Translations under genes and position numbers: made by a program
Shown here: in pieces, positions 827 to 32,000 of the stretch
Position numbering within the stretch: the stretch's first letter is position 1
How the letters are laid out: each line of letters starts with the position of its first letter
DNA from: Methylophaga frappieri
GTDB lineage: Bacteria; Pseudomonadota; Gammaproteobacteria; Nitrosococcales; Methylophagaceae
DNA: 32,000 nucleotides
NCBI RefSeq assembly: GCF_000260965.1
Contig: NC_017856.1
Span: 1,560,001-1,592,000, forward strand
Direction: 5' to 3'
The notes under the pieces: model-generated
Told to the model about the DNA's origin: nothing
Databases searched by the model: none
Seen by the model: only the letters and a program-made list of their open reading frames with translations

Positions 827-2347
827 TTAATTACATTTTGAGCGAATAGCGTTTAAAGCCCATGCTCTGTCAGATGCCGGAGGTGCAGGCCTTTCGCTTA
901 ATTTTCTCACAGCTTTGTAATATTCATCAAAATCAGCTTCAAATAATTGGCGCTCTTTACTGCTAAGCACCTTGAGGGCTTCTCTTTCAAAACATAAACA
1001 ATATTTTTTACTGGGATCATAGGTGTTCATACAGGACCCATACAATGAAGATTTGGATTTACTACTTTCAGCAACAGCGTTCTCTAAAACAATACCCGCC
1101 TTTTGCAAAGAAGGCTGTCCTTTTGCTGCGCGCAGAAAGTTTTCCCTTAGCTGGTAAACAGCAGATGTCTCGCAGCCACCTGATGATGCGATAAAGCGAG
1201 ACAATTGATGGATGGGTTCATTATTGATTGCGCCGCCTAGAACGTCGGATAAACCGCGTCCCCTTGATATCGAAGTATTTGCCTGACTTTGCAGTGTTCG
1301 TTTCTGTTGCTGCATAAAGCTGGAGACATCATCTTGATAGGCATCGTAGAGCTCAATGAATTTCGGATCAATCAGTGCGCTACGCTCAACCGGAGTATCC
1401 TTATAGCCATCACTGTAAACATTCCATGTGACATATCCTCGCTTTACCGTGTTGGCCGGAAGATAGGGTTTACAGCTATCTGAATAGGCCCATTGCATGG
1501 CTGAAAAATATACTTTGAACGTTTTGGATGATGTATCGCTGAAATTACCCTCAAAAACATCCTTGACCGTACCGCTAAATTGAAGACGATCCCAAAACTC
1601 CTGATCCTTAACCACTTGTTTTCCGAGCGCTGGGTTAATTTCTGGTTTCGTTATAGCAATTTCAGCCTGACGTTTACTTCGAAGGCTGGCAATCGTAGAA
1701 GGCAGTTTCTTTCTTTTTGTATCCTGCGTACCTTTTGCATAATGTATTTTTGGCACCCCTGTTTTTCCAAGTGCCTCATAAGCAGGCCGCATGGGTGATC
1801 TTTGATTTTTTCTCTCAAAATTCAAGCCTGTTATCCATTGTTCCGGCTCTTCAAGGTCTGGATTTGGTGATTGCGTGCTTAGTGGTGAGCCGGAGAAATA
1901 TTCACCTTTCGAATATACAAGAATTCTTAAGTAATTCTTTTCTCGGCGCTCTGGAAACTTCTCATCTACCGGACCAATAATATGCTGATTGACTAGATCA
2001 ATTTCATTTTGACCGTAGCGCTTTCCTTCAATCGGATTGCCATTATAGTCTTTTATTTGTTGTGGCAGAAAGCTGACAAGCGTTCCATCCGGAGCCGCCT
2101 TTCGAAATGCAATCACCCTAAAATTAGCTTTTTTATCACTGGCATCCAAACCGTTAAGAGCATTGTAGTCACTGGTCATATAAACCCCGTAATAGGCGTT
2201 CGTTCCGTCCGAATATAAAAGCTTCCCATCAGGTAAATTCCGCTCTTTTAACGGGTTTGCCAGAGCGATGCCGCTAAATTGCATCAGGCAAAGCAGCATG
2301 AAGAGAATTTTTTGTCTTAACCTGAGAGGCTTAAATTGATAGCGCAT
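827..2347 (-). CDS. Sec-exported protein, 2-Cys C-terminal module family (member A, 506 aa)
   Basis: ATG at 2347 and leader MRYQFKPLRLRQKILFMLLCLMQFSGIALA. The mid-domain (LLYSDGTNAYYG, YGQNEIDLVNQHI, RPAYE) is shared with 11280..13742. The C-terminal module (VFEGNF, YSDSC, GGCETSAVYQLRENFLRAAKGQPSLQKAG) has Cys codons at 1472-1474 and 1172-1174. An extra YCLC Cys-motif tail follows. Confidence 0.85.
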   Translation of the reverse strand: MRYQFKPLRLRQKILFMLLCLMQFSGIALANPLKERNLPDGKLLYSDGTNAYYGVYMTSDYNALNGLDASDKKANFRVIAFRKAAPDGTLVSFLPQQIKDYNGNPIEGKRYGQNEIDLVNQHIIGPVDEKFPERREKNYLRILVYSKGEYFSGSPLSTQSPNPDLEEPEQWITGLNFERKNQRSPMRPAYEALGKTGVPKIHYAKGTQDTKRKKLPSTIASLRSKRQAEIAITKPEINPALGKQVVKDQEFWDRLQFSGTVKDVFEGNFSDTSSKTFKVYFSAMQWAYSDSCKPYLPANTVKRGYVTWNVYSDGYKDTPVERSALIDPKFIELYDAYQDDVSSFMQQQKRTLQSQANTSISRGRGLSDVLGGAINNEPIHQLSRFIASSGGCETSAVYQLRENFLRAAKGQPSLQKAGIVLENAVAESSKSKSSLYGSCMNTYDPSKKYCLCFEREALKVLSSKERQLFEADFDEYYKAVRKLSERPAPPASDRAWALNAIRSKCN

Positions 2348-2446
2348 CTATTTGTATTCCATTGTCATGTTCATTTAAGGAGAAAGAACTTCCCTTGTGT
2401 TTATAGCTATATAAAATTTATTTGAAAATCAAATAACAGCGGTAAC

Positions 2447-2650
2447 TCAATAAAACGTAACAGAGTCTTTTTCATCCAGTGTGCCACGAAAATCGGCAAT
2501 ATATTCAATATGATAGCATTTTTTGATGAGTGGTCCTTTAAAAGTCGTGAATTTTACCAAGCTCCTATTAAGAATAAGAAAACTGGGCATTTTCCAAAGT
2601 GAGATTTTAATATCATATAACATTGCATCAGTGAGGTCGCAATTGCCCAT
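2447..2650 (-). CDS. doubtful small ORF (67 aa)
   Basis: ATG ORF in an AT-rich spacer. No SD site, leader or family signature seen. Its start abuts the truncated 5' end of the family pseudogene on the other strand. Confidence 0.2.
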   Translation of the reverse strand: MGNCDLTDAMLYDIKISLWKMPSFLILNRSLVKFTTFKGPLIKKCYHIEYIADFRGTLDEKDSVTFY

Positions 2651-3176
2651 TGGCTAATCGTGATGCGCAGACGCTAAGAGAACTGGATCAGCAATACACC
2701 CAGGGGTTTAAGCCCTTTATTGCCCTGGCGGGCAAAGCCATGTCGATGATTAACACCAATGCCAGATAGGATTCTGCAAGTTTTTCACGCAATATGACGG
2801 CGGTAAATCCTTTTTTTTCCAGCTATATGTTGAACTATCAGAAAACTTACCCTGACTGTCTGGGTGCCGATCGATTTATCGCTACTGTCAGCAAAACTAC
2901 AACTGAAACCAGAAAAGATGGTTTTGGTTTTGAAATCTCGCGCAATGCCTGGACAGAATACGATAAGTACACCATGCCGCGCCGCCTGGCACCACATTTC
3001 GAAAAATTGTGGCGTTCCAGTTTCAGTGGTGATGCCGTTGCCAGCGATGCGTTATTCAATGATCAAAAATCGGTAAGCTGGTGCGAGGTTTGAAAAAGGT
3101 AACGGAAAAACACAGTTGTGATCACCCGCATATTAAGGCCTTGGAAGCTGGGATGATTGCCTATTACTCGCGCTGA
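2635..3176 (+). pseudogene. decayed, 5'-truncated copy of the 2-Cys module family (member G)
   Basis: Only the C-terminal module remains, with no leader or N-domain. YMLNYQKTYPDCLGADRFIATV...GFGFEISR...MPRRLAPHFEKL aligns with YVTYLFRYEDTFPQCMGPNPKSVHIPW...GFGVQSER...VPERLYDRL of 18589..20058. There is an in-frame TAG at 2767-2769. A frameshift near 3065-3075 precedes LVRGLKKVTEKHSCDHPHIKALEAGMIAYYSR (compare FMSKLSCNTPEKSQFEANLFSMYDKH). Cys codons are at 2857-2859 and 3117-3119. Confidence 0.65.
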
Positions 3177-3205
3177 TCATAAGCCAATACTTGAACAGGC
3201 AGTTG

Positions 3206-5020
3206 TCAAAGCGTGCAGCCTTTACAACCAACAACAAAAGGCATCTGCGCTAATATAGCGTTGACTTTCTCTTTCTCGGGCATTGTATTAAATTCAGCCA
3301 GGGCTTGATCAAAATAACCATTCCAATAAAGACGTTTTAAATAGGGTCTTTTGAGGAAGAAGTCCTTTTTCTTAAAAGCGGTGGTGCGTTTAAATTGCTC
3401 TACTTGTTCATGGGATGATGCCAGAGCGCCAACGGCGGCCAAAATGTCATTATGCTTGTAGGTATTTCCATATTTGGTTTCAACGGCATTGGTCCACTCT
3501 GTTGCTTTATCAAATTTTCGTACTTCAATAAAAGCGTCTATAACTCCTTTGTGTCCATATTTATCATCAACAAAGGGGGAGAGTTCGTTAACAGAAGGGT
3601 TGGCGGGTAGATAGGCTGCTAAAACCTCATAAAACTGTTCAACAACAAGCTTGCTTAGTTTTTTTCTTTGTTCTGGTGTCGCAGCCTTGAATTTGGCATA
3701 AGTCTCATCAACCAGTTTGGGTAAGTCTTTGTAATGCTGTAATGCTAGCCCCTTGGCGCTTCTGGAGTTCGCTGCTTCGATGGTCAGTTTCATCATCATC
3801 TCAAGGGGGTTGTCTTTAAAGTGCTTATCAATATACTTGCGCCCATTGTGAATGCTACCCACTGCACCATAGGCTTCAACAAGGCTGCCTGCGGTGAGGG
3901 GCTGAATAAACATATTACCTTCTCCGCTTTTGTAGAACGCTTCCAATCGTTTGATGGTATTCCAGGCTGCATCTTGCATATGCAACTTATGAAATAACCG
4001 TACAAAAATAATATAGTCCCCGTTTGTCCATGATCGTTTTACGGAATATACAAGATTGACAGCTTCCTGCGCCTCTTCTTTTTTCTGAGATTTGACCAGT
4101 TCAACAATGTATCTTTCAAGCAGTTTGTTTTTTGTTTCGGATGAGTGCTGGTCTGATTTTAGATAGGAGATAAGCTGATCTTTTTTGCCTAACTTAGCCA
4201 GGGTTTGGCCAACATACATCGTTTTATTTTTAAGCTCTTTTGGCTTCTGCTTGATCAAATTAACCATATCCTTATAAAAAGCATTGGCATGATTCATCGA
4301 GCCGTATTTTGCAAATAGGTCGGCTGCACCGGATAGAGCACTGACACTTTTCTTTGTATTTACATAAACGTAATCGAAGTGACGTTTCTCAGGTTTGAGG
4401 CCCAGTTTCTCCATCGCTGAAAACAGCGTGGCCGTATCATAGTTGATAAGACCTTTATCCCGAAAAAAGAGGACATCCATTTGTTTATAAGCTGAGAGCG
4501 TTTTTTGTTGCCTTCCAAGTAAACTATAACGCTCTACTTTACTGCTGTAGTTACGCATTATTGAGCTATTATCTTGAGTCATCGGTTGTGAGTTATCGAT
4601 AACAGTTTCAAGACAGGCTGCATCAGGGGCCATGTAGCAGTTGGCATAAAAATCACTCCCTTTTTTCTTTGGAAAACTACGTGAAGGTTTATTGGCGTCA
4701 ACCATAATACGGTTGAGTCCACCCTTACGTTCTACCATAACGATAAAGGGCTGTTCTTTTGCGATGTTGTACTTCAACATACGCTCTGCCTGATCGACAA
4801 ACCAGATGGCAACGCCATTCACTTCTTTGATACGGTCACTAGCCATAAGGCCAGAGGCGGCGCCACTACCAAAAGGATCAATATCAGAGATGTACGCTGT
4901 GTTATAACCTTGTTTAAGCTCGATACCGAGTTTTGCTTCTGCAAATGCAGTTTGGCCAAGAAAAAGCCACATTAACGCTAACAGCGAAAAAGAAGTGCGT
5001 AGAGTTGGTTTAGTCGTCAT
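3206..5020 (-). CDS. Sec-exported PDZ-domain protein with long all-helical (TPR-like) C-terminal region (604 aa)
   Basis: ATG at 5020 and leader MTTKPTLRTSFSLLALMWLFLGQTAFA. PDZ signature LGIELKQ...DPFGSGAASGLMASDRIKEVNGVAI...FIVMVERKG lies at about 4691-4939. The remainder is lysine-rich helical repeats. It lacks the family module. Confidence 0.85.
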   Translation of the reverse strand: MTTKPTLRTSFSLLALMWLFLGQTAFAEAKLGIELKQGYNTAYISDIDPFGSGAASGLMASDRIKEVNGVAIWFVDQAERMLKYNIAKEQPFIVMVERKGGLNRIMVDANKPSRSFPKKKGSDFYANCYMAPDAACLETVIDNSQPMTQDNSSIMRNYSSKVERYSLLGRQQKTLSAYKQMDVLFFRDKGLINYDTATLFSAMEKLGLKPEKRHFDYVYVNTKKSVSALSGAADLFAKYGSMNHANAFYKDMVNLIKQKPKELKNKTMYVGQTLAKLGKKDQLISYLKSDQHSSETKNKLLERYIVELVKSQKKEEAQEAVNLVYSVKRSWTNGDYIIFVRLFHKLHMQDAAWNTIKRLEAFYKSGEGNMFIQPLTAGSLVEAYGAVGSIHNGRKYIDKHFKDNPLEMMMKLTIEAANSRSAKGLALQHYKDLPKLVDETYAKFKAATPEQRKKLSKLVVEQFYEVLAAYLPANPSVNELSPFVDDKYGHKGVIDAFIEVRKFDKATEWTNAVETKYGNTYKHNDILAAVGALASSHEQVEQFKRTTAFKKKDFFLKRPYLKRLYWNGYFDQALAEFNTMPEKEKVNAILAQMPFVVGCKGCTL

Positions 5021-5043
5021 GATGGTCTTCCGTATCCTTGATA

Positions 5044-5265: not shown

Positions 5266-5352
5266 TTTTTTACCAATATTTCTTCTACAAATAGGGTTGA
5301 AATACTCTGGGTTCTATTTCTTGAGCTTACACCATTGAGCTTTCTCTGCCAT

Positions 5353-5369
5353 CTAACCATCCTGGTTAG
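5353..5369. repeat. palindrome CTAACC-N5-GGTTAG overlapping the kinase stop codon
   Basis: Perfect 6-bp arms with a 5-nt spacer. It shares the CTAACC arm with the palindromes at 6774 and 7624. No T-run follows, so it is not a classical terminator. Confidence 0.3.
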
Positions 5370-6700
5370 GATCTCATAGCCGCGTTAAAATGCAATGTAG
5401 CCCTGAGCCCCGGGTTAGCATTTTCCAGCGACAGCTTTGCGCCATGACGGATCGCAACGGCTTCCACATGGCGCAGACCAAATCCATGCCCGCCTGAATC
5501 CTGGCGACGGCCTAAAGCTGCCAGCAGATCCAGCGTTGTATCCTCAATGCCGGCCCCATAGTCACGCACACTTAACGAGAACCGGTAACCATCGTGTTTG
5601 AGCGTTATCAGTACCGTTGAGCCAGGTGGTGCGTATTTCAATGCATTTGAAATCAGGTTGACCAAGGCACTCTCAATAAGTGGTCTGGATCCCAGTATTT
5701 CTGCCATCTCGCATAAGATCTCCTGTTTCAAGGTGACAGCGCTTTCTTCAAACGCATCAGCATAGAGTTGAACAACCGATTGTACGACGCTCTCAAGATT
5801 GAGCGGCTTCATGGCAAAGCCTGGTGTTGCCTCGATTTTTGCAAGCTCCAGAATATGGGTGACGAGTTCAATCAGCTGGTCAGCTTCAGCGGCGATCTCG
5901 GTATTGCCAGCGGCGACTATCTGATTGCGTAGATTCGATATGGCGTGATTAAGCTCGTGTGCTGCGACCTGGCTGTAGGATTCAAGGCCGTGCAGCAGGC
6001 GCTCGACTTCAGCCAAAGCCTTGTCAATATTGACAGACAATTGTGAAAGCTCATCACCAGACCCAGCCTTCGGTGTTGAAAAAATTCGGGCAGACAGGTC
6101 GCCTTCCTCAATGCGTTGAAAAACAGCATTGATACGTCTAATTCTGCTACGAAAGCGGTGATTGAGGGATCCCAAAAGAAGAGAGCTACAAAGACCGAGA
6201 AAAATAACAGCCACTATCATCACTGGAACAAACCAATGATTCAATGACTCTCGCGCACTCAGGCGGCGGCCGACGACAAGCGCAAAATCCGGTTCAATAT
6301 GAACGCGGTGTAGAAGCAATGGGCCTGCGGCTATTCCAATGTCTACGCCATCCAGTTCTATCCAGGGATCTGACGGGTGATTCGGCATTCGTTCCGCATT
6401 GCCGATGATCTTTTCGCCATTGGAATTAGCCAGCAAATAGACTGCGCCGTTTTCCCCACTTTCATCTCCCGATAGGCGTATACCTATGTTCTTCATTAAA
6501 ATAGTAATGTCGGGAATAATGCCGCGCTCTGGCGCCCGTTCCAGCATAACCGCTATGTCGCGAGATACATCCTCTTTGACTGATCGCTCAACCGCAATAT
6601 TGATCGCGCTGTAGGCCGTAACCCCGGCAATCAAGGCAACCAGTAGGGTCACCAGTATATTGATGAGTAGAGCAACAACGATTGGATTTCTGGCTCGCAC
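5366..6700 (-). CDS. membrane sensor histidine kinase (444 aa)
   Basis: GTG start with GGGAGGG SD. Two TM helices flank a periplasmic segment of about 130 aa. HAMP-like segment RIRRINAVFQRIEEGDLSARI, H-box AAHELNHAISNLRNQ, N-box LVNLISNALKYAPPGS, G1 VRDYGAGI, G2 GGHGFGLRHV. Confidence 0.9.
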   Translation of the reverse strand: MRARNPIVVALLINILVTLLVALIAGVTAYSAINIAVERSVKEDVSRDIAVMLERAPERGIIPDITILMKNIGIRLSGDESGENGAVYLLANSNGEKIIGNAERMPNHPSDPWIELDGVDIGIAAGPLLLHRVHIEPDFALVVGRRLSARESLNHWFVPVMIVAVIFLGLCSSLLLGSLNHRFRSRIRRINAVFQRIEEGDLSARIFSTPKAGSGDELSQLSVNIDKALAEVERLLHGLESYSQVAAHELNHAISNLRNQIVAAGNTEIAAEADQLIELVTHILELAKIEATPGFAMKPLNLESVVQSVVQLYADAFEESAVTLKQEILCEMAEILGSRPLIESALVNLISNALKYAPPGSTVLITLKHDGYRFSLSVRDYGAGIEDTTLDLLAALGRRQDSGGHGFGLRHVEAVAIRHGAKLSLENANPGLRATLHFNAAMRS

Positions 6701-6762
6701 TGTCCCTCCCTAAGATGGGTATGCTGATACGCAATTTCTGCTTATTATTGGCGAAGTGTTGG

Positions 6763-7617
6763 TTACTCGTCACCTAACCGATTGGGTTGGTTTGCTTGTT
6801 GTCGTTCCATTGATGTGGCCACGGTTTTGGCATTGCCACTGATGAAAACCAGTACATCAATCCCTGAATCACCATTATTCTGCAGGTTGATTTCGATTTC
6901 AGAATGGTCGCCTGGTGGGACAAAGCAAGGCAGCCGCGCTGCAGTCGTCTCCGGGCAAATGACACTTTTCCAACTTTCTTCATTTTGGGCATAACGCGAG
7001 ATGTTCATGGTGATTTTGGCTGCTGTTTCAAGGTGTTGATGGCCGGCAGGTTGGGCGTAGATCGTTGTGCCTTGACTTCCATCAACAGGTAATCTGATGC
7101 TGTCTTTTTCAGCAGGGGAGAGGGTTGCTTGTACTTCCAGCCCTATGGTCATTTTGACTTCCCGCAGGCTGCCAATGATGCCGGCAAATCCACCAAGTAG
7201 ACTGGGCTGCGTAGCTGGCGTTAGAGGAGATAACTGTTCAATTCGGCGAAGCGTGTCTTCATCATCGGCAGCCATACGGTTGGCAGCCTCTACCATGTCG
7301 CGAGCTGACGCCAGGATTGCTGATCGGCGTTGGTCAGATTTGAGATCAAAACGGTGAGTGTTTTGTTCCAGAGTGTTTGAGTCAAGCTGTTCAACCAGGT
7401 TCAAGCGCGATTTTGCGGCGCGCGCCATGCCATAGGCGTCACCTGCCGCTTGTCGATCCAAAAAGCTGACCTCGGACTGGTAAAGAGCACTCGCAAGCGA
7501 AGAGTCAAAAGGGCTCGAAGCGTCATATGATAATTTTGGAGGTGTCTTTGTTTGCGTAAGGCATCCGGTGATCAGTAGGGAGGTAAGCCCCAAGGTTAAT
7601 AGTCTGGAATAGCTCAA
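6763..7617 (-). CDS. lipoprotein of unknown function, first gene of the kinase operon (284 aa)
   Basis: TTG start. Leader MSYSRLLTLGLTSLLITGC contains the lipobox LITGC. Its stop lies 62 nt upstream of the kinase start on the same strand. No family recognised. Confidence 0.7.
   Translation of the reverse strand: MSYSRLLTLGLTSLLITGCLTQTKTPPKLSYDASSPFDSSLASALYQSEVSFLDRQAAGDAYGMARAAKSRLNLVEQLDSNTLEQNTHRFDLKSDQRRSAILASARDMVEAANRMAADDEDTLRRIEQLSPLTPATQPSLLGGFAGIIGSLREVKMTIGLEVQATLSPAEKDSIRLPVDGSQGTTIYAQPAGHQHLETAAKITMNISRYAQNEESWKSVICPETTAARLPCFVPPGDHSEIEINLQNNGDSGIDVLVFISGNAKTVATSMERQQANQPNRLGDE
6774..6790. repeat. imperfect palindrome CTAACC-GATTG-GGTTGG between lipoprotein and kinase genes
   Basis: Same left arm as 5353 and 7624, with one mismatch in the right arm. 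It shares CTAACC..GATTG with the 7624 copy. Confidence 0.25.
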
Positions 7618-7623: not shown

Positions 7624-7641
7624 CTAACCTCGATTGTTAGG
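7624..7641. promoter_or_regulatory. palindrome CTAAC-N7-GTTAG in the 82-bp divergent intergenic region of the two-component locus
   Basis: Lies between the lipoprotein start (7617) and the regulator start (7700). This is a candidate operator position and the third copy of the CTAACC arm. Confidence 0.3.
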
Positions 7642-7699
7642 TGCGGAAAGCGTGTTTTCGGGGTACTCTGGCCAAGATGATATAGGAAAGCGAAAGGAA

Positions 7700-8428
7700 A
7701 TGTCTGAAACCAGTAACGTACTCATTGTTGAGGACGACCCGGTAATTGCATCGCTGATGGCTGATGTTGCTGGCGAACTTGGCTATGGGATTAGTCAAGC
7801 AGAAACCCTCGACCAGGCCAAGCGGCAGAGCGTCACGCAGCTGCCTGATCTGGTTATTCTCGACCGGATGCTGGGGGACGGTAGCGAGGGGCTCGATTAC
7901 ATCGAGTGGCTGAACGCACTGGAGGGAAAGCGCCCTGGGATTCTCATCGCCAGCCGCCTGAGCTCTGTGAGTGACCATGTGCTGGGCTTAGAGACGGGCG
8001 CTGATGATTACATCAACAAGCCATTCGAACGCGAAGAGTTGAGGGCGCGCCTGCGTGCTGTTGCGCGTCGTGCAGCGTCCAATCGAGCACCGGCGAGTGT
8101 GCTGATTTTTGACACACTCGAAATCAGAAAATCGAGCGCCCAGGCGTTGGTCAACAACACACCACTACCGCTTCGCCCGCAATCATTTGCACTGTTGAAG
8201 GCGATAGCCGAACGCCAGGGAGAGTGGGTCAGTCGCAAGGCGCTTTGGCATGAAGTGTGGACGGATTACAAAAACCTGTCGCCGCAAGACACGGTTATCA
8301 ATACCGCCATTAGCCGTTTACGGGGTGTGTTGTCTGCCGTAGAGGGCGCACCGGAGATTGTCAGCGAAAACTTGGGCTACCGTCTGGTGAGCCAGAATGA
8401 CAGACTTTTGGACTCTGAAACTGTATAG
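7700..8428 (+). CDS. OmpR/PhoB-family response regulator (242 aa)
   Basis: Trimmed to the ATG at 7700 (AAAGGAAATG). Receiver: VLIVEDDP, DLVILDRML (acceptor Asp), GADDYINKPF. Winged helix: LRPQSFALLKAIAERQGEWVSRKAL...INTAISRLRGVL...GYRL. Confidence 0.9.
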   Translation: MSETSNVLIVEDDPVIASLMADVAGELGYGISQAETLDQAKRQSVTQLPDLVILDRMLGDGSEGLDYIEWLNALEGKRPGILIASRLSSVSDHVLGLETGADDYINKPFEREELRARLRAVARRAASNRAPASVLIFDTLEIRKSSAQALVNNTPLPLRPQSFALLKAIAERQGEWVSRKALWHEVWTDYKNLSPQDTVINTAISRLRGVLSAVEGAPEIVSENLGYRLVSQNDRLLDSETV

Positions 8429-8442: not shown

Positions 8443-9222
8443 ATGGGTGTTCTAACCACCATTAAAAAGCGATTGAGCACCTTGCTAGGCGGTAAACACA
8501 CTCAAGTGGCAGCCCTGCCTGAAAAAACAGCGGCACCTGTCTCGCTGTGGCTCGATCAACGCATTGTCAATGTCGCTTACGAGACCTTTGCTTACATGCT
8601 GAAAAATTATCATACAGCGGGGGTGATCGACCATGCGGCATGGATCATAAACGACGCAGATCTCCAGAGAATGATCTCAATGCTTGAGCCTTACGTTACA
8701 ACAGCGCATCGAGGTGTCAATCTGCAGATGAGCACGGATGAACAGGACGATTTCGTCCGGCTGCTGGATTATGCCGGGTTTGCTGCGCAGACACTGGCTG
8801 ATCGAGTGCTGCTTGAGATGGTATACGAGGCCTGTAGTGACGATGGTTATGGCAAAGATCGGAACTATAACGATCAGCTCTATATTGTCCTGGAATTTAC
8901 GCCTGAAGAACTCTCAGCCCATAATCGGGTTTTTCAGAAAATGATTGATGACCCTGAGTGCATCGACAACTCAATGTACGATCTCACCGAGTGGGATAAA
9001 TTCGTAGCACTCGTTGCAAAGCTGAAACAGATTGATGAAAGCACGAAATCGCCCGTGGTTGTGCCAATGACTTTTAGTGAATGGGCGACTTACAGCTCGT
9101 ACAGCTCGCATGCATTTGATCTCGACGATGGAGAGCTGACCGAGGAGGAGGAAACTGCGATGTCAAAAGTCATGTCATTTAACTCTGTAATTTTGAGAGG
9201 GAATGCTCGAATCAAAGCGTAA
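8443..9222 (+). CDS. leaderless acidic hypothetical protein (259 aa)
   Basis: The ATG is 14 nt after the regulator stop. No leader or TM. Acidic C-terminus DLDDGELTEEEETA. No family recognised. Confidence 0.75.
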   Translation: MGVLTTIKKRLSTLLGGKHTQVAALPEKTAAPVSLWLDQRIVNVAYETFAYMLKNYHTAGVIDHAAWIINDADLQRMISMLEPYVTTAHRGVNLQMSTDEQDDFVRLLDYAGFAAQTLADRVLLEMVYEACSDDGYGKDRNYNDQLYIVLEFTPEELSAHNRVFQKMIDDPECIDNSMYDLTEWDKFVALVAKLKQIDESTKSPVVVPMTFSEWATYSSYSSHAFDLDDGELTEEEETAMSKVMSFNSVILRGNARIKA

Positions 9223-9242
9223 GTATGGAAGATAAATAGCAC

Positions 9243-10451: not shown

Positions 10452-10452
10452 T

Positions 10453-23643: not shown

Positions 23644-23646
23644 TTT

Positions 23647-23910
23647 TCACCTTTCGTCTGATTTCCGGCGGAGATCAACAAACGGGCAGACGGTTGTGGA
23701 CTTGTTTTTTGCGCCGTCTTTTCCATTGCCTGAAGATATCTCGAAACAACGCTCTTCCCCATCCTGTATCTCAAGGGCGTGTCCGTTCGTGCGTTGATCA
23801 TCTTGCGGCGATGGAACAGGGGATGAGCAGGCGGCGTTCAGGACGCAGAGACTTGCAACGGCGAGTACAGATTTAAAACTGTCATCGTTAAAGTTGTCTT
23901 TTGCGCTCAT
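23647..23910 (-). CDS. small putative lipoprotein (87 aa)
   Basis: Trimmed to the ATG at 23910, overlapping the end of member C by 23 nt. Leader MSAKDNFNDDSFKSVLAVASLCVLNAAC has a non-canonical lipobox. The mature part has Cys in CFEISS and VCPFVD. Confidence 0.45.
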   Translation of the reverse strand: MSAKDNFNDDSFKSVLAVASLCVLNAACSSPVPSPQDDQRTNGHALEIQDGEERCFEISSGNGKDGAKNKSTTVCPFVDLRRKSDER

Positions 23911-26107
23911 TCGCCTCAGCCCTGAGAGCCTGAACCTGCTCACGCAATTGTTCGCCAGCGGCTCTTTGTTTTTGCTCGTAGTCTTTGAGCAGACGGGTAC
24001 GCTCGGGTCCGGAAACCGTGGTTATCTGCTTCATGAACACTTCGGCCTCTTCGACCTGCGTTTGATGCTGCGCCTGTATCAGAGCCTGAACTTTCTTATC
24101 GGTTTCCTGGTCAATCTGGCGGATACGCTGACGGCGGTCTGCGGTTGCCTGACGTGCGCTGTCTTGTTGGGGTTGTTGGCTTTGACCCCGTGTTTTGGGG
24201 GCAGGCGGCCTGTTCTCGGAGGGGACTGTCGGTTCTTCCGTTATTCCCATATGCTGCATGGTGAATTCGATAGTGTTTTGCAGGTCGTTGTACCTTTGCG
24301 AATTTTCCGGCGTTTGATTGCGCTCCTTGATCAACTCGATCAGGCGCTGCTCAAGGTTTTGCCTGTTTTGGGATTGGGCCTGTGCCGCTTCTCGCGTAGC
24401 TTCTTCCAGCTCATCCAGTGATTGCTCGGCATCGCGTGCGGCGCGATTGAAATTATCCTGACCTTCTCCGGTAACGTGATCCACTTCCCGGTTGAATTCC
24501 TTTTCGCTCATTGTCGGCGTTTTCCAGTCTTCCCCGAATAGACCGCCCCCGCCAAAAGCTGCAACCGCTGCATTGACGGTTTCATTCTCTTCCTGCACGT
24601 TCGCGACAGGGGTAAAGGGCGGTGGCGGTGCTCCTGTCTTTGTGGGTGCATCGCTTTCCGTTGCCGCTCCGGCAAAACGCAGCCCGGCCTGCTGCACCGA
24701 TGGCTGGCCGTTTGCCGCGCGGATAAAGTTATCTGTCATTTGACGGACAGTCGCGCTGTCACATGCATGAGTCTTGAGGAAAGTTTCCATCTCCCCGCGC
24801 AGGCCAAGCACAAGCCCGAAGCCCTGAAAGATACCCTGATCCAGAACGGCCCTGTTGAGGTCGGAGTCAAACTGCGCCCAGTGCGCGCCGAACCGTGCAT
24901 CAATCCGGTAGGTCTTGGTTTGCTCCGAGGTATGGATGGTTCTCGATCCGTCGAGATTATGATCCGTGCCTTCATAAGCATCGTAATTGCGCTCGAAAGT
25001 TTGCCACTGCTTTACATGGGCTTTGCAGCGTTTGGAATAGGACATGGCCAAGCCAGTGTAGAAAGCTTTGAATTCCGGTGTATTGCGGTACTCGCCAAAC
25101 TCTCCCTCGAAGATGCGCCGGGCGATATCAAACCCGTCATAGCGCCCCCAATAGGGATCGAGTTTGTAGACGATGCCCTCGCGACGCCCAGCTTCATAAG
25201 CGAATGCTTTCCGGTAATCTCCGGCACTTTCGGCTTTTTGCAGTTCGCCCTTGATAAAGCCCGCGAGGGTTAGCTCCGGGTTTTCCTGCGGATCAGCAGT
25301 GATGCCCCGTGATGATCTGATAGCACGGCAAGCCGGTGTATCACAGCGATTGAAGTTCAGCCGGTTGTTTTCGACCTCGTAGCCAAAAGATAAAACAGGC
25401 TTGTCACTCTCCCCGTAGCGGAATGCATTTTTATAATAGTGAGAACTATAGGCTCCATTGGTCTTGCCGCATGTGCCCAGGAACAAACTGACGATATCGT
25501 TCAGGCTCTTGATAAACCTGTTATCGGGTTGATCGCCGGAAAATGGCAATATTGTTTGCGTAGGATGAGATGGTGTATGAAGTATATTGAAATCGACTTT
25601 GGTTGCACCAGCCTTGGATATGGCAGCATTCCGCGATGCATCTATTGCGTCTGTTTGTTCTAAATAGCGCGCCTTGAGGTCTTTATTTTCCTCCATCAAT
25701 CTGGCCATGTCCTCTGTCAACCGTTTGACCTCTGGCCCACTCAGTTTTTGGCTTCTTAACGTATTCCCGATATCCGTGAGAGCTTGTTGAATGCGCCTCT
25801 CTTCTGGTTCATGGGCGAGGCGTAAAGCCTCTTGGCGGGTATTGAATTCAGCTTCGGCTTTTGCCCTGTCAGCAACGGCTAATCCTATAGAGCAAACCGC
25901 TTTGCCATTGTTGAATTCCGCTTGATTTGAATAGACCTCGTAATTATCGCTGCGCCCGATCATCACACCCATCCGTTCCAGTCTTGTGGCACGTTTTTCT
26001 TCTAGCGTTGCCGCCTGGAGTGAGAGGGGCAGAAACAGGATCGCCATCCATACCATCAGTGTCAGGGTTGCTTGAATCCTTTCAATACTATCGCCGTACC
26101 TTGTCAT
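23888..26107 (-). CDS. Sec-exported protein, 2-Cys module family with long coiled-coil tail (member C, 739 aa)
   Basis: Trimmed to the ATG at 26107 (GAGGA SD). Leader ...TLTLMVWMAILFLPLSLQA. Module at 24650-25159 (IFEGEF, SYSKRC, THACDSATVRQMTDNFIRAANGQPSVQQAG) has Cys codons at 25025-25027 and 24761-24763. The C-terminal roughly 250 aa are Q/E/R-rich helical. Confidence 0.9.
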   Translation of the reverse strand: MTRYGDSIERIQATLTLMVWMAILFLPLSLQAATLEEKRATRLERMGVMIGRSDNYEVYSNQAEFNNGKAVCSIGLAVADRAKAEAEFNTRQEALRLAHEPEERRIQQALTDIGNTLRSQKLSGPEVKRLTEDMARLMEENKDLKARYLEQTDAIDASRNAAISKAGATKVDFNILHTPSHPTQTILPFSGDQPDNRFIKSLNDIVSLFLGTCGKTNGAYSSHYYKNAFRYGESDKPVLSFGYEVENNRLNFNRCDTPACRAIRSSRGITADPQENPELTLAGFIKGELQKAESAGDYRKAFAYEAGRREGIVYKLDPYWGRYDGFDIARRIFEGEFGEYRNTPEFKAFYTGLAMSYSKRCKAHVKQWQTFERNYDAYEGTDHNLDGSRTIHTSEQTKTYRIDARFGAHWAQFDSDLNRAVLDQGIFQGFGLVLGLRGEMETFLKTHACDSATVRQMTDNFIRAANGQPSVQQAGLRFAGAATESDAPTKTGAPPPPFTPVANVQEENETVNAAVAAFGGGGLFGEDWKTPTMSEKEFNREVDHVTGEGQDNFNRAARDAEQSLDELEEATREAAQAQSQNRQNLEQRLIELIKERNQTPENSQRYNDLQNTIEFTMQHMGITEEPTVPSENRPPAPKTRGQSQQPQQDSARQATADRRQRIRQIDQETDKKVQALIQAQHQTQVEEAEVFMKQITTVSGPERTRLLKDYEQKQRAAGEQLREQVQALRAEANERKRQL

Positions 26108-26348: not shown

Positions 26349-26498
26349 TTGAGCGTTATTGGTTATGCGCGGGTCAGTACAGAAGAACAGCGACTAGATC
26401 TCAAGCGGGATGCAGGCGGCCAGGAAACGCGATTCCGCAAAGACGGCCTCCCCGGGAAGCGCTCTGAGCATTTTGCCATTGTTGTCGAGAATGACTGA
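26349..26498 (+). pseudogene. N-terminal stub of a serine recombinase (resolvase/invertase)
   Basis: LSVIGYARVSTEEQRLDLKRDA matches the catalytic-Ser N-terminus xIGYARVSTxxQxLDLQxxAL. The sequence then diverges and stops after 49 codons (a full enzyme is about 190 aa). TTG start only. Confidence 0.6.
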
Positions 26499-26921
26499 GA
26501 TCCCTTTGAGGCGCTAAGGGGAGAGATGTTGTAACATCGTCAGCATGTGAGTTTTTTGCTAACCCCATCCATAGGGGACACTCGGTTGTTCTGGTGCTTG
26601 CCCTTTAAGGCTGGGCTAACCAGTAAAAAATGAAATTATTTTCAAGTAATTTCTGAGCATGGTATTTTTCGTGGTATTTGGAATATGGCGATTTGTAACT
26701 GTATGAAAAATAAGAAAAATAAATGCTTATTTACAATCGAGTGGGAGTGACCGGCACTGACAGGCAATGTCTGGCACCGACTAGCAACTGCAGGTATTAA
26801 CGACAAAGACATATTTCTCAGCGAATCGAGAGTGGACAGTTTTTTCTGGGAAGACTGTCAATGATTATTTTCGACAGCAGTCACGAAGATTTCTCTCCAC
26901 GGTCAAGTCTGGCGTCGATGG

Positions 26922-27230
26922 CTAGTTCTGCAACCAGTTGTCTATTTTCAGTCCAGGAACCTGCGAGAATTCACCGATATTTGCAGTCACCACCGTAAGG
27001 TCATTCGCAAGGGCATGTGCAGCAATCAGTAGATCATTTGGCCCAATCGGTGTTCCCTGACGTGTGAGGTTATGTCGTAAAGATGCGCACTGTACGGCGC
27101 GGGCTGTGGACTGAGCGCTGCTGCCGGCGCATGGCTGACATTGCGATCAGCGAAGACCCCAATGGCAACTCTGATCGAGATATTGCAAATCTATCTCGAC
27201 CAGTAGCCGCCGCTGTTCCTCGGAGTATAT
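26922..27230 (-). pseudogene. vapC: 5'-truncated vapC-like PIN toxin remnant with in-frame TGA
   Basis: C-terminal RQGTPIGPNDLLIAAHALANDLTVVTANIGEFSQVPGLKIDNWLQN is the classic VapC tail. There is an in-frame TGA at 27147-27149. The N-terminal roughly 50 codons (DTN motif) and any vapB are absent, replaced by the 3' end of 27232..28719. Confidence 0.65.
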
Positions 27231-27231
27231 T

Positions 27232-28719
27232 TTACTGCTCAACGTGTCCTGCGCCGGGCGGCAATGGCATACCCAGCGTTTTTGCCACCACGGTAATCGG
27301 GTTGCGCCGCAGGCGGGCCACTTCCTCTGAATCACATCCGAAAGTCCGGATCAGGTGCTTGGCGCCGGTGCCCATGGGAATGCCGATGTGGTTTCCGTTT
27401 GCAAGTATCTGCAGAATAATCGGCTCCCAGTCTGCATCAAACTCATAGGTGACCGTAGTGGTATCCACGGTATATTCGTCCTGCTGCGTAATAGTGTGTT
27501 TGTAGGTTACGGTCTTACCGACCTGGTTTTTGCACAGTTGTGCATCCGCCAGCGCGAACTGAAATGCGATGGTTTGCCAATGTGCATCGCCACCCATGGA
27601 CTGAGACCAGCCGCCGCGGGTAAATTCCCGCTCCCACAAGCCACTGGCTATATTGATCAGGGGGGGAGCCACCCGGGCAAACGGGTACCCTGGGTCATTG
27701 CTGAGAAAATCCAGATATTCTGCGGTAAGAACAGAGTAGGGCAGGATCACGCCTGATTTGTACATATACATGTAGCGTTCGCTCAGCTTTGCACCTGCCG
27801 GTGTGTAGACGGGAACGTCAAAACGCCGCCAGTTTCTGCGACACTCGGAACGCATGGAGCTGATGGCGTTCTGCAAAGCACCCAGCACGCGGCCACTCTC
27901 GGGTATGGCCGCTTCGCTCTCGGCGATAACGACCAGCGGGTCGCCTGTTTCTTCGCAGCGGGTTTTCGTATCCAACAGGACGACGGCTTCATTGCGCTCT
28001 ACACGCCTGTTAAAGCGAGCCAGCGGGCTTATGGACTCGAGTTGGGCGCGGCGCTCAGCAAGCGCACGTGCTTCGACCGCCTGCTCTTCCATATACTCCA
28101 GCTGGCGCGTCGACAACCCCCTGGTTGCGTTGTGCCCGGTCTTGCGCTGCCAATCGACAATAGCAAGCCGGGTATTCCCATCGATTACGCCATCCACCTG
28201 GCCCGGGTCGTATCCCAGCGCGGCGAGAGCACTTTCGATGCGCATTCCAGTGGCGGTATCTGACTGTGAGCTTGATGATGAGCTAATGGATTGAGCAGGG
28301 GCAGGTCGGCTGACCGTGGCCTTGGCAGTACCTTGGGTCGGAGCGGGTGCTTTCTTTGCTTGTCCCACGCGTGCAACCGACCAGGGCGAGGTGGCGCGTC
28401 GACCATTACCCCAGAAGCCGTCACTTACGCTGCAATCTCTTGTGACGGTAAACCGTGCTGCCCCGTTCTGGCTCCCCTCAATCCATTTGCCCGTCAGCTC
28501 GTTACCGCGCGAGGATAGCGTAAGCTCCAGTTTCTTATCACACGAGCGAACATTACCGTAGCAGCAATCAAGTCGGCCTGAAGCCGCCCCACACTCCATC
28601 GCCCCGTAAGCTGATTTGTATTCGCCTGCCAGTTGTTCGATGTTGCAGTCTGTGTTGGCGTAAGTAGCACTGATTGGCAGACCGAAAAAGATCAACGTCA
28701 GAACTATTTTTTGGGTCAT
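27232..28719 (-). CDS. Sec-exported protein with peptidoglycan-binding domain, 2-Cys module family (member E, 495 aa)
   Basis: Trimmed to the ATG at 28719. Leader MTQKIVLTLIFFGLPISATYA. Cys-rich N-domain. PG_binding_1-like IESALAALGYDPGQVDGVIDGNTRLAIVDWQRKTGHNATRGLSTRQL (about 28090-28245). Module: LWEREF, FALADAQLC, RTFGCDSEEVARLRRN, with Cys codons at 27532-27534 and 27334-27336. Confidence 0.85.
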   Translation of the reverse strand: MTQKIVLTLIFFGLPISATYANTDCNIEQLAGEYKSAYGAMECGAASGRLDCCYGNVRSCDKKLELTLSSRGNELTGKWIEGSQNGAARFTVTRDCSVSDGFWGNGRRATSPWSVARVGQAKKAPAPTQGTAKATVSRPAPAQSISSSSSSQSDTATGMRIESALAALGYDPGQVDGVIDGNTRLAIVDWQRKTGHNATRGLSTRQLEYMEEQAVEARALAERRAQLESISPLARFNRRVERNEAVVLLDTKTRCEETGDPLVVIAESEAAIPESGRVLGALQNAISSMRSECRRNWRRFDVPVYTPAGAKLSERYMYMYKSGVILPYSVLTAEYLDFLSNDPGYPFARVAPPLINIASGLWEREFTRGGWSQSMGGDAHWQTIAFQFALADAQLCKNQVGKTVTYKHTITQQDEYTVDTTTVTYEFDADWEPIILQILANGNHIGIPMGTGAKHLIRTFGCDSEEVARLRRNPITVVAKTLGMPLPPGAGHVEQ

Positions 28720-29071
28720 CGTTCGCAATTTCCCTAGACTCCGATACTTGACTAACGAGTATAACATCGCAACATTACGAGTCGTAACCCCTCGACGGCA
28801 GGGTGGGGTTTAAAACCCGGCAGCATAGGTAATTCCGAGTTATCGTTTTCATACATATGGAAAGGAAACCCGCTGGACTTCACCGCAAGACTGGCGACGC
28901 TGTTGTCGAAGTCGGGTATGACCCTGACGGTTTCATGGGCCCAATGGCCCGAATTTCCGGCCATGCGGTTACGCTATCGGGTTTTGGTTGCTAGAGGCTC
29001 ATGGCTGGCAGTTACCCTATGGCCAGAGGCGGATTCCGACTCGCCCACTAACCAGAATGAGGGACCCTACA

Positions 29072-30280
29072 ATGTTTCGTTGGCACAGGCAGCTACTGTT
29101 AAACCTTATGGCTGCGGTAGTGGGCATATCGTCCGCGCACGCACAGGACATCATCACCACCGAATACGGCAATGTCTTTGTTATCCCGTTCAAGCAATAC
29201 CTTGATCCGGATAAGCGGCCGTCCTGTTCCACGCTACCTGGGGTGATTAGCTACAAAGCCTTTCAATCCCAGGATAACCACAACTTCACTGCCGAGGAGT
29301 ATCGTCAGCTCGCTGGTGATGCGCCTTACATGGGCTTAAGGGGGCACAATTCCTGGTATGACCGGGACCAGCGCAAGATGGTGTCATGGGACGATCTTTT
29401 TCCGGTCTACGGTGATTTTAGTAGCGGCAAGTGGGATGATCTGCCGGTACTGTGCGGTGCCAGGGATCAGCCCAAGCCGAACCCCGCTGCTGTGAGCCGG
29501 GCTAAAAAATCGGTCGACGACTACCCAGAATTTACTGATTACGTTCTCCACAGAGCGCCGGGGCTGGTTACACACTCTCATTTCTATTCAGCCGGCAAAG
29601 CCTGGTGCCAACACGCGTATGTCAGCGTGATTGCTGAATACGAGAATGACCAGGTAAAAAGCTCGCTGCTGGCTGCCAATCCTGCCGCGTATTTACAGAA
29701 CACCATTATTCCTAAGATTAAGCAAATATGCCCTGATTTTCCCAACGCCAACCCGCATTCAAAGCAGCTGCTGGTGCTGAAATTCAGGCCTGAAGAGGGG
29801 AGGATTGCCGATGAACGGATTAATCCGGATAAATTGAACTTTAAGATTGATGATGCGGGTCATTTGAAGCTGGTTCGCGATACAGCCTACCGGAACTGGC
29901 TCACCTATAACGATAACCCCGATGCCCGTGAAGCGATTAGTAATATCGTGGAAGCAGAGAACAAGCGGGTCTTAGCCAGGGAATCCGATTGGCTCGAACT
30001 GTACATCACGGCCGCGGATATCGGGCTGAATCTGGCCTACTCGCATCGAGATATCCATGGCGATGGCAAGCGGGTCAGACGCCAGATTGATTATTATGAA
30101 TACGCGCTGGAGCAGCTGCAAAAGGCCAGTAAACCGCTGGAGCAAGCTGTGACGGCAAACCAGGCATTATCTCTCACTACCTTTGATGAGGTTGATGCAC
30201 TGCTCAAGGCCTATTTCAGCGACAAGTCGCGCGGTCAGAGTGCCATGAAAAGAGCTGAAAGCCTCTCCACCAAACAGTAA
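29072..30280 (+). CDS. Sec-exported hypothetical protein (402 aa)
   Basis: Trimmed to the ATG at 29072 (GAGGGA SD). Leader MFRWHRQLLLNLMAAVVGISSAHA. No family module recognised. Confidence 0.8.
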   Translation: MFRWHRQLLLNLMAAVVGISSAHAQDIITTEYGNVFVIPFKQYLDPDKRPSCSTLPGVISYKAFQSQDNHNFTAEEYRQLAGDAPYMGLRGHNSWYDRDQRKMVSWDDLFPVYGDFSSGKWDDLPVLCGARDQPKPNPAAVSRAKKSVDDYPEFTDYVLHRAPGLVTHSHFYSAGKAWCQHAYVSVIAEYENDQVKSSLLAANPAAYLQNTIIPKIKQICPDFPNANPHSKQLLVLKFRPEEGRIADERINPDKLNFKIDDAGHLKLVRDTAYRNWLTYNDNPDAREAISNIVEAENKRVLARESDWLELYITAADIGLNLAYSHRDIHGDGKRVRRQIDYYEYALEQLQKASKPLEQAVTANQALSLTTFDEVDALLKAYFSDKSRGQSAMKRAESLSTKQ

Positions 30281-30300
30281 GTGTGTCTGAGGTCAGGGCT

Positions 30301-31191
30301 ATGATCACCATTGAACGCACAGACTATGCCTTCGCCGCCGTCGATGCCTCCATCGAGGAATGGGCGGCGATCAAGGCAATTGTGCGGTATTGCGCTAATC
30401 ACTACTGGGCTACGGAATTGCATTACCTTATTTCTGGCCCAGAAGAACGTCGTCCGCAGAAGGTTGAGTCCTTGAGCGAAGCGATGGAAAACGTTTGGGG
30501 AGAACCCCCTGTCGAGTTGTTATTCAGGGATGAATTATTATTGCTGACCCAGTGTGTCACCGATACCGAGGGCAAGGGCCTGCCCGGCGTCGACGAGGAC
30601 TTCCATGCGGATCTTGCCGGCCAGATTTATACACTCGATGTCTATGGCATTTTTGATGACGACAAGGTCACGGATGAGACATGGGATCGCTGGGCAAGAG
30701 AACGACGCGTACATGACACGGTTTCCTGGATCATCAAACTGCATGCCGGGCAAACCGACAAGGCTGGCCACGCCTATGCCCAGCATCCGCTGCGTGTACA
30801 TATGCGCTTGCAGGCGCTGTTTCCCGATGCGGGAGAGGATGTCCGCCACGCTGCCCTGTTGCACGACGTGATGGAAGATTGCGGTATCACCGCAGATGAC
30901 CTGCACCAACGGGGTTATTCGGACGATACCATTGACATCGTCAGTGCGCTGACCAAGAACCCGGATGATGACCGCACCTATGCGCAACGTATCGAGTGGT
31001 TGGCGGAGCAGGGGACAGTAGGTGCAATGCAAGTGAAGCTTTGCGATCTGCTGGACAATACTGACCCTGAGCGCCTTCGTGACTTACCCGATGCCCAGGC
31101 CGCATCATTGTCGCAACGCTATGCCAAAGCCATTGCGCTGTTAACCAGCCGACTGGAGGCCTTGGGTGTTACGCATACCGGGCCGCAATAA
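30301..31191 (+). CDS. two-domain leaderless protein: N-domain paralogous to the 114-aa protein, plus a SpoT/Mesh1-like HD (small alarmone hydrolase-like) domain (296 aa)
   Basis: ATG at 30301 with GAGG SD (GTG at 30283 is possible). HD signature: LHAGQTDKAGHAYAQHPLRV, AALLHDVMEDCGITADDL, SALTKNPDD, VKLCDLLDN. Confidence 0.85.
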   Translation: MITIERTDYAFAAVDASIEEWAAIKAIVRYCANHYWATELHYLISGPEERRPQKVESLSEAMENVWGEPPVELLFRDELLLLTQCVTDTEGKGLPGVDEDFHADLAGQIYTLDVYGIFDDDKVTDETWDRWARERRVHDTVSWIIKLHAGQTDKAGHAYAQHPLRVHMRLQALFPDAGEDVRHAALLHDVMEDCGITADDLHQRGYSDDTIDIVSALTKNPDDDRTYAQRIEWLAEQGTVGAMQVKLCDLLDNTDPERLRDLPDAQAASLSQRYAKAIALLTSRLEALGVTHTGPQ

Positions 31192-31432
31192 TGAACATTT
31201 GTTATCGATGTTGAGGTCTTCGAACGCCGTGACGGTCAAGTCAAAGTCACTGCAAGTATAGCGAGCCCAACGGTGTGACCTAGCCCAGAATTCTTGGTCC
31301 ACATTGAAAGTCGTAAACGTGTCAACACCCGCCGAACAGCAAATGTCGCGGCGTAACTGGGTTGTCAAAAACCACTTGACCACTCCAATCGGGTATACTC
31401 ATGTTGTATCAATCTTCAGAAATGTGGCGACC

Positions 31433-32000
31433 GTGAGACTTACCACTCGCAATATCTTCTATCAAATATTCTTTGCTGTGATTGCCTCAAGTTCACTTGG
31501 TTTGGCACCTGTGGCTGCATCTGCTCAATCGATGAAGGAGATGAGCAGCACGTTGGAAGACCTGTTTGGGCAAGCGGGTGTTGAAATGAAAAAACCTGCT
31601 GCGCAACGTCGGCAGGAAGAACGTGACCGTATTCAAAAAGCGCGTGAAGCCGCGAGCAATATCCCCGCCACTGCAAACCTCGAAGGGCCATGGCGACTGG
31701 CGGCGCAAAACCGATCGCTCGACCTCGTTTTATATGAGACAAAGGGCAGCTCGTATGCGGAGAGAATCTATGACGGTTTTGCCCATGACCCAGTGCGCGA
31801 TTGTGTTCTGCCCGTAAATATTCGTATCGCTGACAAACATCCTCGCCCCGTAACCGCACGATATAGCACTAGCCGATATTATATTCAGACGGATGGAGGG
31901 CAGATAACAGAGCATTCCAAAGTCTATCCTGAATTAATGTCTGAAAATTGCGGCGGCGGTTCTGAGGACGTCATGGCGCAATCCAGCCTTTATGGTCAAT
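31433..32000 (+). CDS. 5' part of a second copy of member F (member F', runs off window)
   Basis: Not in the ORF track because there is no stop in the window. A GTG at 31433 (or 31424) opens MRLTTRNIFYQIFFAVIASSSLGLAPVAASA. The sequence is then colinear with 18589..20058, including the identical 33-aa stretch DLFGQAGVEMKKPAAQRRQEERDRIQKAREAAS. The antisense track ORFs 31440..31859 and 31493..31708 are shadows. Confidence 0.8.
   Translation, partial: MRLTTRNIFYQIFFAVIASSSLGLAPVAASAQSMKEMSSTLEDLFGQAGVEMKKPAAQRRQEERDRIQKAREAASNIPATANLEGPWRLAAQNRSLDLVLYETKGSSYAERIYDGFAHDPVRDCVLPVNIRIADKHPRPVTARYSTSRYYIQTDGGQITEHSKVYPELMSENCGGGSEDVMAQSSLYGQ

Follow-up and report, generated by a model that had tools for sequence, protein, structure and literature searches.

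The proteins of the family described here share a predominantly alpha-helical module of about 200 residues that carries two near-invariant cysteines, lies behind a predicted export signal and is unclassified in Pfam-A, NCBIfam, PADLOC, the PDB sequence profiles and the PDB and BFVD structure sets searched with Foldseek. The family came to light in a stretch of 32,000 nucleotides of Methylophaga frappieri DNA (contig NC_017856.1, positions 1,560,001 to 1,592,000; hereinafter the window, meaning the whole stretch analyzed). Judged by profile statistics, the window holds four clear members (A, B, C, and D), three distant or decayed ones (F, F', and G), and one candidate (E) whose membership is unproven. 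Protein A is 100% identical to the hypothetical protein Q7C_1555 of this organism. We propose that the module is a disulfide-stabilized extracytoplasmic binding core, to which exchangeable N-terminal domains would lend different targets, and that the cluster in the window was assembled on mobile DNA from old paralogues.

Membership of the family

An earlier note on this DNA, made from the sequence alone, had grouped eight loci into one family of Sec-exported proteins with a common C-terminal two-cysteine module. The open reading frames (ORFs) lie where that note had placed them, and the start codons of C (26107) and E (28719) agree with those of their orthologues. The loci and their parts are as follows (aa, amino acids).

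827-2347, minus strand: member A (Q7C_1555, 506 aa), supported by BLASTP and by the family profile
1643-2257, minus strand: N-domain of A (aa 31-235), after the signal peptide
1028-1621, minus strand: module of A (aa 243-440)
aa 435-506 of A, minus strand: four-Cys helical tail, predicted as four helices
2635-3176, plus strand: member G, an F-type fragment in decay, interrupted by in-frame stops and lacking the second-Cys region; recognizable part 2635-3090
11280-13742, plus strand: member B (820 aa), with a signal peptide and a PDZ-like region (aa ~66-150)
12060-12647, plus strand: N-domain of B (aa 261-456)
12726-13331, plus strand: module of B (aa 483-684), followed by a 120-aa C-terminal extension without the four-Cys tail
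18589-20058, plus strand: member F (489 aa), with a signal peptide
19600-20037, plus strand: module of F (aa 338-483), distant and N-terminally truncated, with the C-x6-Q-x3-N motif kept
21970-23403, minus strand: member D (477 aa), with a signal peptide
22015-22404, minus strand: module of D (aa 334-463), both Cys present
23888-26107, minus strand: member C (739 aa, counted from the start codon ATG at 26107), with a signal peptide and a variable N-terminal region
24635-25195, minus strand: module of C (ORF aa 310-496), followed by a charged, Q/E/R-rich C-terminal stretch of 200 aa
27232-28719, minus strand: candidate E (495 aa), with a signal peptide, a Cys-rich beta domain, PG_binding_1 and a two-Cys C-terminal region containing GCDS..V..LRRN
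31433-32000, plus strand: member F', represented by its N-terminal 189 aa because the window ends there, with the module beyond the window

Composition-corrected BLASTP among the window proteins connects A with B (E 8e-20), A with C (2e-13), and B with C (1e-14), and the pairwise similarity that the earlier note had expected among its members is significant for these three (1e-13 to 1e-20) as well as for F and G (6.6e-5). It is not so for D, which gives no significant BLASTP match to any other window member and is recovered through profiles only: a hidden Markov model (HMM) built from A, B, and C alone retrieves it at E 3e-7 with both cysteines aligned. Beyond the window, a word-indexed homologue search with the module alignment returned 3 proteins only, and an exhaustive search was needed; hmmsearch with a six-sequence module profile over 1.84 billion cluster representatives found 442 proteins at E<=1e-3, of which 211 reach E<=1e-10 and 37 reach E<=1e-30. 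The module family is defined here by an HMM rebuilt from 161 of these hit sequences, which scores A at 4e-67, C at 2e-60, B at 4e-53, D at 9e-26, G at 7.5e-8, and F at 2e-6. Apart from E, this model scores no further ORF of the window, and a six-frame scan of the whole window detects no additional copies of the module. F' is joined to F by BLASTP (E 4e-103; 75% identity), and the family HMM retrieves its full-length 489-aa orthologue from a Haliea locus (L006) with E 6e-6; a profile of F, G, and F' (the latter taken full-length from Haliea) aligns with the family profile over 139 columns with an HHalign probability of 81% and an E-value of 1.2e-5. The description of G as a decayed copy is borne out by its in-frame stops and the loss of the second-Cys region.

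The position of E is different. It fails significance against the family HMM (E 0.09), and HHalign aligns it with the family only over the 26-residue motif GC[DE]S..V..LR.N (P ~1e-3, probability 19%), the alignment being short both with a single sequence and with eight, and confined to 'FGC[DE]SEEVARLRRN'. In the segment LWEREF, which had been taken for the signature of E, an Arg stands where Gly is invariant in the homologues. The AlphaFold2 model of E, computed from 9 close homologues, attains a predicted local distance difference test score (pLDDT) of 44, and the order of its predicted elements (helix-Cys, hairpin, helices, Cys-helix) is colinear with that of A, which is no evidence of homology.

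Because the BLASTP, HMM, and HHalign statistics converge and hundreds of homologues share the conserved columns, a resemblance of A, B, C, D, F, and G due to chance or composition can be excluded on sequence grounds. The notion that the shared signature is a fortuitous or compositional likeness among unrelated exported proteins is refuted for seven of the eight loci and, for the set as a whole, appears very remote; it may hold for E, with its 26-residue match and low-confidence model, and it draws some further substance from the 'PAY' mid-domain once ascribed to D, which is not significant (see below).

Architecture and conservation of the module

The AlphaFold2 model of full-length A, derived from a 150-sequence alignment (pLDDT 90.5, predicted template-modeling score 0.69), depicts the module as alpha-helical with one beta-hairpin. 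The predicted elements in A are helices 249-255, 259-265, and 275-291, a hairpin (301-307/320-326) and helices up to residue 417, with C292 at the end of helix 275-291 and C392 just ahead of helix 395-408. In terms of sequence, the N-terminal part comprises V-Y-K-S..W, F-[DE]-G-x-F, and the helix ending in the first Cys; the middle part consists of the hairpin, D-x-R-F, and several helices; and the C-terminal part opens with the second Cys, continues into a helix with S-A-x3-Q-x2-E-N-x2-R-A-A-x-G-x-P-S-L-Q and includes E-S-D further on.

Conservation, counted over 162-167 aligned homologues and given in the numbering of A, is extreme at several positions: V245, W252 (156/157), F265, G267 (159/159), and F277 are near-invariant, position 247 is K or R, N403 is found in 164/164 homologues, Q399 in 162/164, and Q415 in 156/160. 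Strong conservation extends to S394, A395, R406, A408, S413, and E427-S428, as well as to position 402, which is E in 125 homologues, D in 22, and Q in 9; E427 is replaced in about 10% of homologues. C292 is present in 158 homologues and C392 in 153. Both are kept in 150/162, the first only in 7, the second only in 1, and neither in 4, against about 0.3 estimated under independent loss of the two. This correlated loss provides weak support for a disulfide because the homologues are related to each other; the expectation that the two cysteines would persist in wider homologues is nevertheless confirmed.

The signature motifs proposed earlier hold for A, B, and C, in which [FI]-E-G-x-F, the helix-Cys element, and C-x-[ST]-x3-Q-x2-E-N are all recognizable, and the extension noticed after the second Cys in these three proteins corresponds to RAA.G.PSLQ, a set of near-invariant family columns. 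The VYKS..W..F[DE]GxF segment, present in A, B, and C, is missing from D, F, and G along with the rest of the first ~40 module residues; since their HMM matches begin at profile position 40, we consider these proteins truncated variants. D and F also lack the RAA.G.PSLQ extension. Both cysteines are present in A, B, C, and D, and the first Cys of F is displaced by 3 residues.

Outside the module, the family is variable. A C-terminal four-Cys tail, C-x(6-20)-C-x-C...C, occurs in A and in 71/144 homologues and is absent from B, C, D, and F; the C-terminal stretch of C is 59% E/Q/R/K/A/L. A second novel domain, beta-rich and located N-terminally (the N-domain), is shared by A and B at E 1e-43 or lower, and its HMM matches A at 2.5e-67 and B at 1e-42; it is found in 47/159 family proteins and is duplicated in four. 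The mid-domain ending in (R/P)PAY that had been assigned to A, B, and D is in this sense a real second domain in A and B, whereas the match of D to its HMM is not significant (E 0.33). Of the fused parts noted before, PG_binding_1 (PF01471) in E exceeds its gathering score (26.6 bits, cut-off 23; E 6.7e-6; residues 177-215 in an ORF of 511 aa), and a homologue of E (P0163) bears the name peptidoglycan-binding protein. The PDZ of B stays below the gathering cut-off (PDZ_6 and PDZ_2, 22 bits vs. 27), with a match to the DegP-family PDZ region at 6.7e-8. The Pfam-A scan, which took in 6 window proteins and 81 homologues, adds WD40 and Sel1 domains in four homologues each. Signal-like N-termini, called by a heuristic based on hydrophobicity and an AXA motif, are predicted in every window member, in keeping with the Sec leaders ascribed to every intact copy, and in 110/154 homologues that begin with Met. 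The regions N-terminal to the module are, as far as sequence comparison goes, interchangeable, and are drawn from PDZ, WD40, and Sel1 domains, stretches of charged helix, and the novel N-domain.

Comparison with known domains and folds

The module had been described as corresponding to no named domain, and the searches agree. The Pfam-A scan detects accessory domains only, with no match to the module in any of the proteins covered; NCBIfam and PADLOC return nothing for it; and PDB sequence profiles yield nothing below E 0.04. A Foldseek search of the A model against 350,542 PDB chains and BFVD finds no hit at E<=0.001, the best being 0.17 in PDB (TM below 0.1) and 0.09 in BFVD, and reveals no likeness to lysozyme, transglycosylase or any hydrolase fold.

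In UniProt, A is named 'YARHG domain-containing protein'. YARHG domains are extracellular, comprise about four helices, lie behind signal peptides in modular proteins, and have been proposed to bind peptidoglycan; a Gram-negative subgroup, 'YASKG', has four conserved cysteines (PMC3355149). The Pfam YARHG model (PF13308) gives no match in A at E<=1, nor in the N-domain of A or six homologues at E<=10, and YARHG is absent from the 25 families (each hit by >=2 of the proteins) most often matched in the 81 homologues. The tail of A (aa 435-506), with four predicted helices and four conserved cysteines, does resemble such a domain, but the two-Cys module of B, C, D, and F occurs without this tail. 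The YARHG label at best concerns the optional tail of A and not the two-Cys module.

Two kinds of known modular proteins invite comparison. Periplasmic proteins with PDZ, Sel1, WD40, or PG_binding_1 domains, such as DegP/Prc-type proteins and cell-wall enzymes, have in common with the present family a signal peptide, N-terminal binding modules, and an extracytoplasmic location; in DegP/Prc-type and PG_binding_1 enzymes, however, the partner of these modules is a known protease, amidase, or transglycosylase, whereas the constant partner here matches no known sequence family or solved fold. Polymorphic toxins and effectors offer a parallel in their mobile-element location, adjacent divergent paralogues, and a breakpoint at a domain boundary. 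Their organization is nonetheless the reverse, with a constant N-terminal trafficking region and a variable C-terminal toxin as opposed to a variable N-terminus and a constant C-terminus, and the family members lack an adjacent immunity gene, a secretion-system or trafficking domain, and any toxin-domain match.

Mobility and origin of the cluster

Three further features of the window bear on the history of the cluster.

1-297, plus strand: 3' end of a TraG_N gene (PF07916), read from an extending metagenome contig
26349-26498, plus strand: N-terminal remnant of a serine recombinase/resolvase, a short ORF beginning MSVIGYARVSTEEQ, assigned by motif recognition only
26733-32000, strand not applicable: horizontally shared block with a PIN remnant, E, a 402-aa exported protein, an HD_4 protein, and F'

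The block at 26733-32000 matches a contig of Haliea sp. in blastn at 95.9% identity over 4917 bp and 96.4% over 360 bp; it is also 96% DNA-identical to TARA ocean metagenome contigs, and its gene order recurs in the corresponding loci (L005-L007), with a transposase nearby. The PIN remnant in the window is short of about 290 bp of the PIN gene. Because of the 96% DNA identity to the Haliea contig, the block points to a recent transfer between distant gammaproteobacteria. The resolvase-like remnant sits between gene C and this block. On the opposite side, a metagenome contig of 27.5 kb (L049/L050), 99.3-99.8% identical to window positions 1-25441, runs beyond the left edge of the window and carries the TraG_N gene that overlaps positions 1-297. 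Given this gene end at the left edge, a conjugative element probably carries the entire cluster as cargo. A search of a plasmid database with 25 kb of the window found nothing, as did a tRNA scan and an Rfam scan. A role of the family itself in conjugation, considered in view of TraG_N, was set aside; in other genomes the members do not lie close to transfer genes.

A sign of exchange is seen in C. Compared with its counterpart on the metagenome contig, which stems from a sister strain (P0014, locus L046), aa 297-744 are essentially identical, with one difference, and aa 1-296 are highly diverged; the N-terminal part of the gene lies at window positions 25441-26107, and the strains are otherwise 99.3% identical. 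The switch at residue 297 therefore marks a predicted recombination junction where the variable region meets the module. This breakpoint is also the sole indication of the diversifying pressure that the earlier note had suggested.

The earlier note had attributed the cluster to local amplification, and this does not stand. The paralogous modules within the window are only 9-28% identical, A has closer relatives elsewhere (60-79% identity, in Alteromonas halophila, Oceanococcus atlantica, and metagenomes), and so does C (P0014 to P0022). With such distant paralogues, orthologues of A and C outside the window, an imported E/F' block, and an adjoining TraG_N gene, the cluster is, on the sequence relationships, an accretion of old paralogues on mobile cargo with N-terminal exchange and not a product of recent local amplification.

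Phyletic distribution and gene neighborhoods

A survey of 185,579 species genomes with a degenerate DNA pattern for C-x-S-A-x3-Q-x2-[ED]-N-x2-R-x-A-x4-S-x-Q matched 38 loci, 36 of which were confirmed by the family HMM; the pattern was hand-built, with an estimated reach of about one third of the family and an estimated ~2 chance matches expected. The loci come from Acidobacteriota, Verrucomicrobiia, Omnitrophota, Nitrospira, Planctomycetales, Thioalkalispiraceae, Methylococcaceae, Methylomonas, Alteromonas antoniana (two copies), Cycloclasticus, Kangiellaceae, Burkholderiales, Rhodospirillales, and Marinicaulis. The family is rare yet spread over many phyla. Three members stand in tandem on one strand in a metagenome-assembled genome of an uncultured proteobacterium, RBC049 (locus L035, 1-5901); therefore, paralogue clustering is not unique to Methylophaga. 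Another metagenome-assembled genome holds two members (locus L038).

All-against-all BLAST of the flanking ORFs from about 40 loci uncovered no recurrent neighbor, the only matches being overlapping-frame artefacts and generic SDR and response-regulator genes; the family genes stand alone, without conserved partners. The A orthologues in Alteromonas and Oceanococcus are surrounded by housekeeping and efflux genes. In Alteromonas halophila (L001) and Oceanococcus atlanticus (L002), an RND efflux pump pair (ACR_tran) lies within a few kb of the A orthologue, a proximity that we treat as coincidence because it does not recur at other loci.

Predicted function of the module

With respect to function, it can be predicted that the module is an extracytoplasmic domain, periplasmic or secreted, in which the two near-invariant cysteines would form a disulfide between the first long helix and the helix that bears the conserved Q, E, N, and R. 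We hypothesize that it acts as a non-catalytic binding or assembly core for one common envelope or extracellular ligand, and that the swappable N-terminal protein- or peptidoglycan-binding domains would set the tether partner of each paralogue. To this proposal of a disulfide-stabilized binding core with exchangeable targeting domains we assign a probability of roughly 0.55. A non-catalytic role is favored because strict conservation falls on Gln, Asn, Trp, and Gly, with the acidic positions varying, and because the family has no conserved His and, apart from the paired two, no further conserved Cys. The lack of an obvious catalytic motif had been remarked on before, and among the homologues, too, no invariant catalytic-type residue stands out. 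The broader view of an unrecognized exported module with a predicted disulfide-stabilized fold is likewise upheld by the comparisons reported here.

Several observations weigh against the binding-core proposal. The preference for binding over catalysis comes from the pattern of invariant residues alone, and the conserved polar residues K247, D327, R329, S394, E402, R406, S413, E427, and S428 would also suit an active site. Seven homologues keep the first Cys alone, and the disulfide pairing is one that we infer; export was judged by the hydrophobicity/AXA heuristic. D and F may not share the function of the other members because part of the module is missing from them. Finally, a remote kinship of the module to a known fold may have gone undetected in the comparison with PDB, BFVD, and the libraries named above.

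The conserved polar and charged residues, in particular the dense set K247, D327, R329, E402, R406, and E427-S428, could alternatively signify an enzyme whose substrate is a polymer of the envelope or the extracellular space, for instance a carboxylate-dependent glycan or peptide hydrolase or a lyase, with the N-terminal domains targeting the substrate. The union of a constant C-terminal core with variable binding domains would fit such an enzyme, as would the peptidoglycan-binding domain of E if E is a member. We nevertheless regard catalysis as doubtful: the acidic positions E402 and E427 vary, there is no conserved His and no Ser or Cys nucleophile besides the paired cysteines, Foldseek finds no lysozyme, transglycosylase, or hydrolase likeness, and D and F, which lack several of the candidate residues, are kept intact. 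A different emphasis, on the cargo status of the cluster, its recent inter-order transfer, and the breakpoint in C exactly at the boundary between N-terminal region and module, would suggest secreted effectors of mobile elements directed against competitors, grazers, or hosts, whose targets are diversified by N-terminal recombination. The eukaryote-like Sel1 and WD40 repeats of some homologues, the tandem triplet in L035, and the sparse, patchy phyletic pattern are compatible with this possibility, which we deem distinctly improbable, given that no immunity-like or secretion-system gene recurs beside the members, that their polarity is opposite to that of classical polymorphic toxins, that there are no PADLOC or toxin-domain matches, and that the A orthologues of Alteromonas and Oceanococcus lie among housekeeping and efflux genes. 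A bolder variant combines elements of both: a new fold with a new extracytoplasmic activity, be it that of an envelope-acting enzyme or of a receptor-binding warhead, which would travel on conjugative elements and be retargeted by N-terminal recombination. This remains speculative and is, in our estimation, unlikely; if true, it would imply a hitherto unseen class of effectors, mobile and modular and either secreted or periplasmic, ranging from Acidobacteriota to Omnitrophota.

What is new here is the domain and its fold only, and no new biological mechanism is claimed. The analysis defines a domain family beyond the current curated libraries: its clusters at 50% identity number at least 442, its model is of high confidence, and no structural relative has been solved. 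It is accompanied by a second novel domain, the N-domain, and, as an option, by the four-Cys tail. The family could serve as a test case for exported proteins built from a constant core and exchangeable targeting domains, for which the window offers seven copies on one mobile piece of DNA, a junction at a domain boundary, and a recent inter-lineage block. For now, its practical value is that of a well-delimited target for structural and functional work.

Other genes in the window

Three predicted cytoplasmic genes occupy positions 8443-11229 on the plus strand directly upstream of B. The first encodes a 259-aa protein without a match; the second (9243-10451) fuses a cREC_REC receiver (E 9e-28) to a weak beta-propeller match; and the third (10417-11229) encodes a calcineurin-like phosphoesterase. 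PADLOC gives no match for this three-gene set. For cRec domains, a role in the processing of cyclic phosphates within nucleotide- and NAD-centered conflict systems has been proposed (PMC7824862).

A HAMP/HATPase histidine kinase (5366-6700, minus strand) and an OmpR-type response regulator (7634-8428, plus strand) flank a predicted lipoprotein (6763-7617, minus strand); this kinase/regulator pair might control the surrounding genes for exported proteins. Outside the family, the window encodes four additional signal-peptide- or lipoprotein-like proteins: a PDZ and helical-repeat protein (3206-5020, minus strand), a Sel1-repeat protein (13871-14845, plus strand), a 513-aa lipoprotein (16862-18403, plus strand), and a 402-aa protein (28988-30280, plus strand). 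The PDZ and Sel1 domains of these neighbors are accessory domains that also occur in fusion with the module, both in B and in distant homologues.

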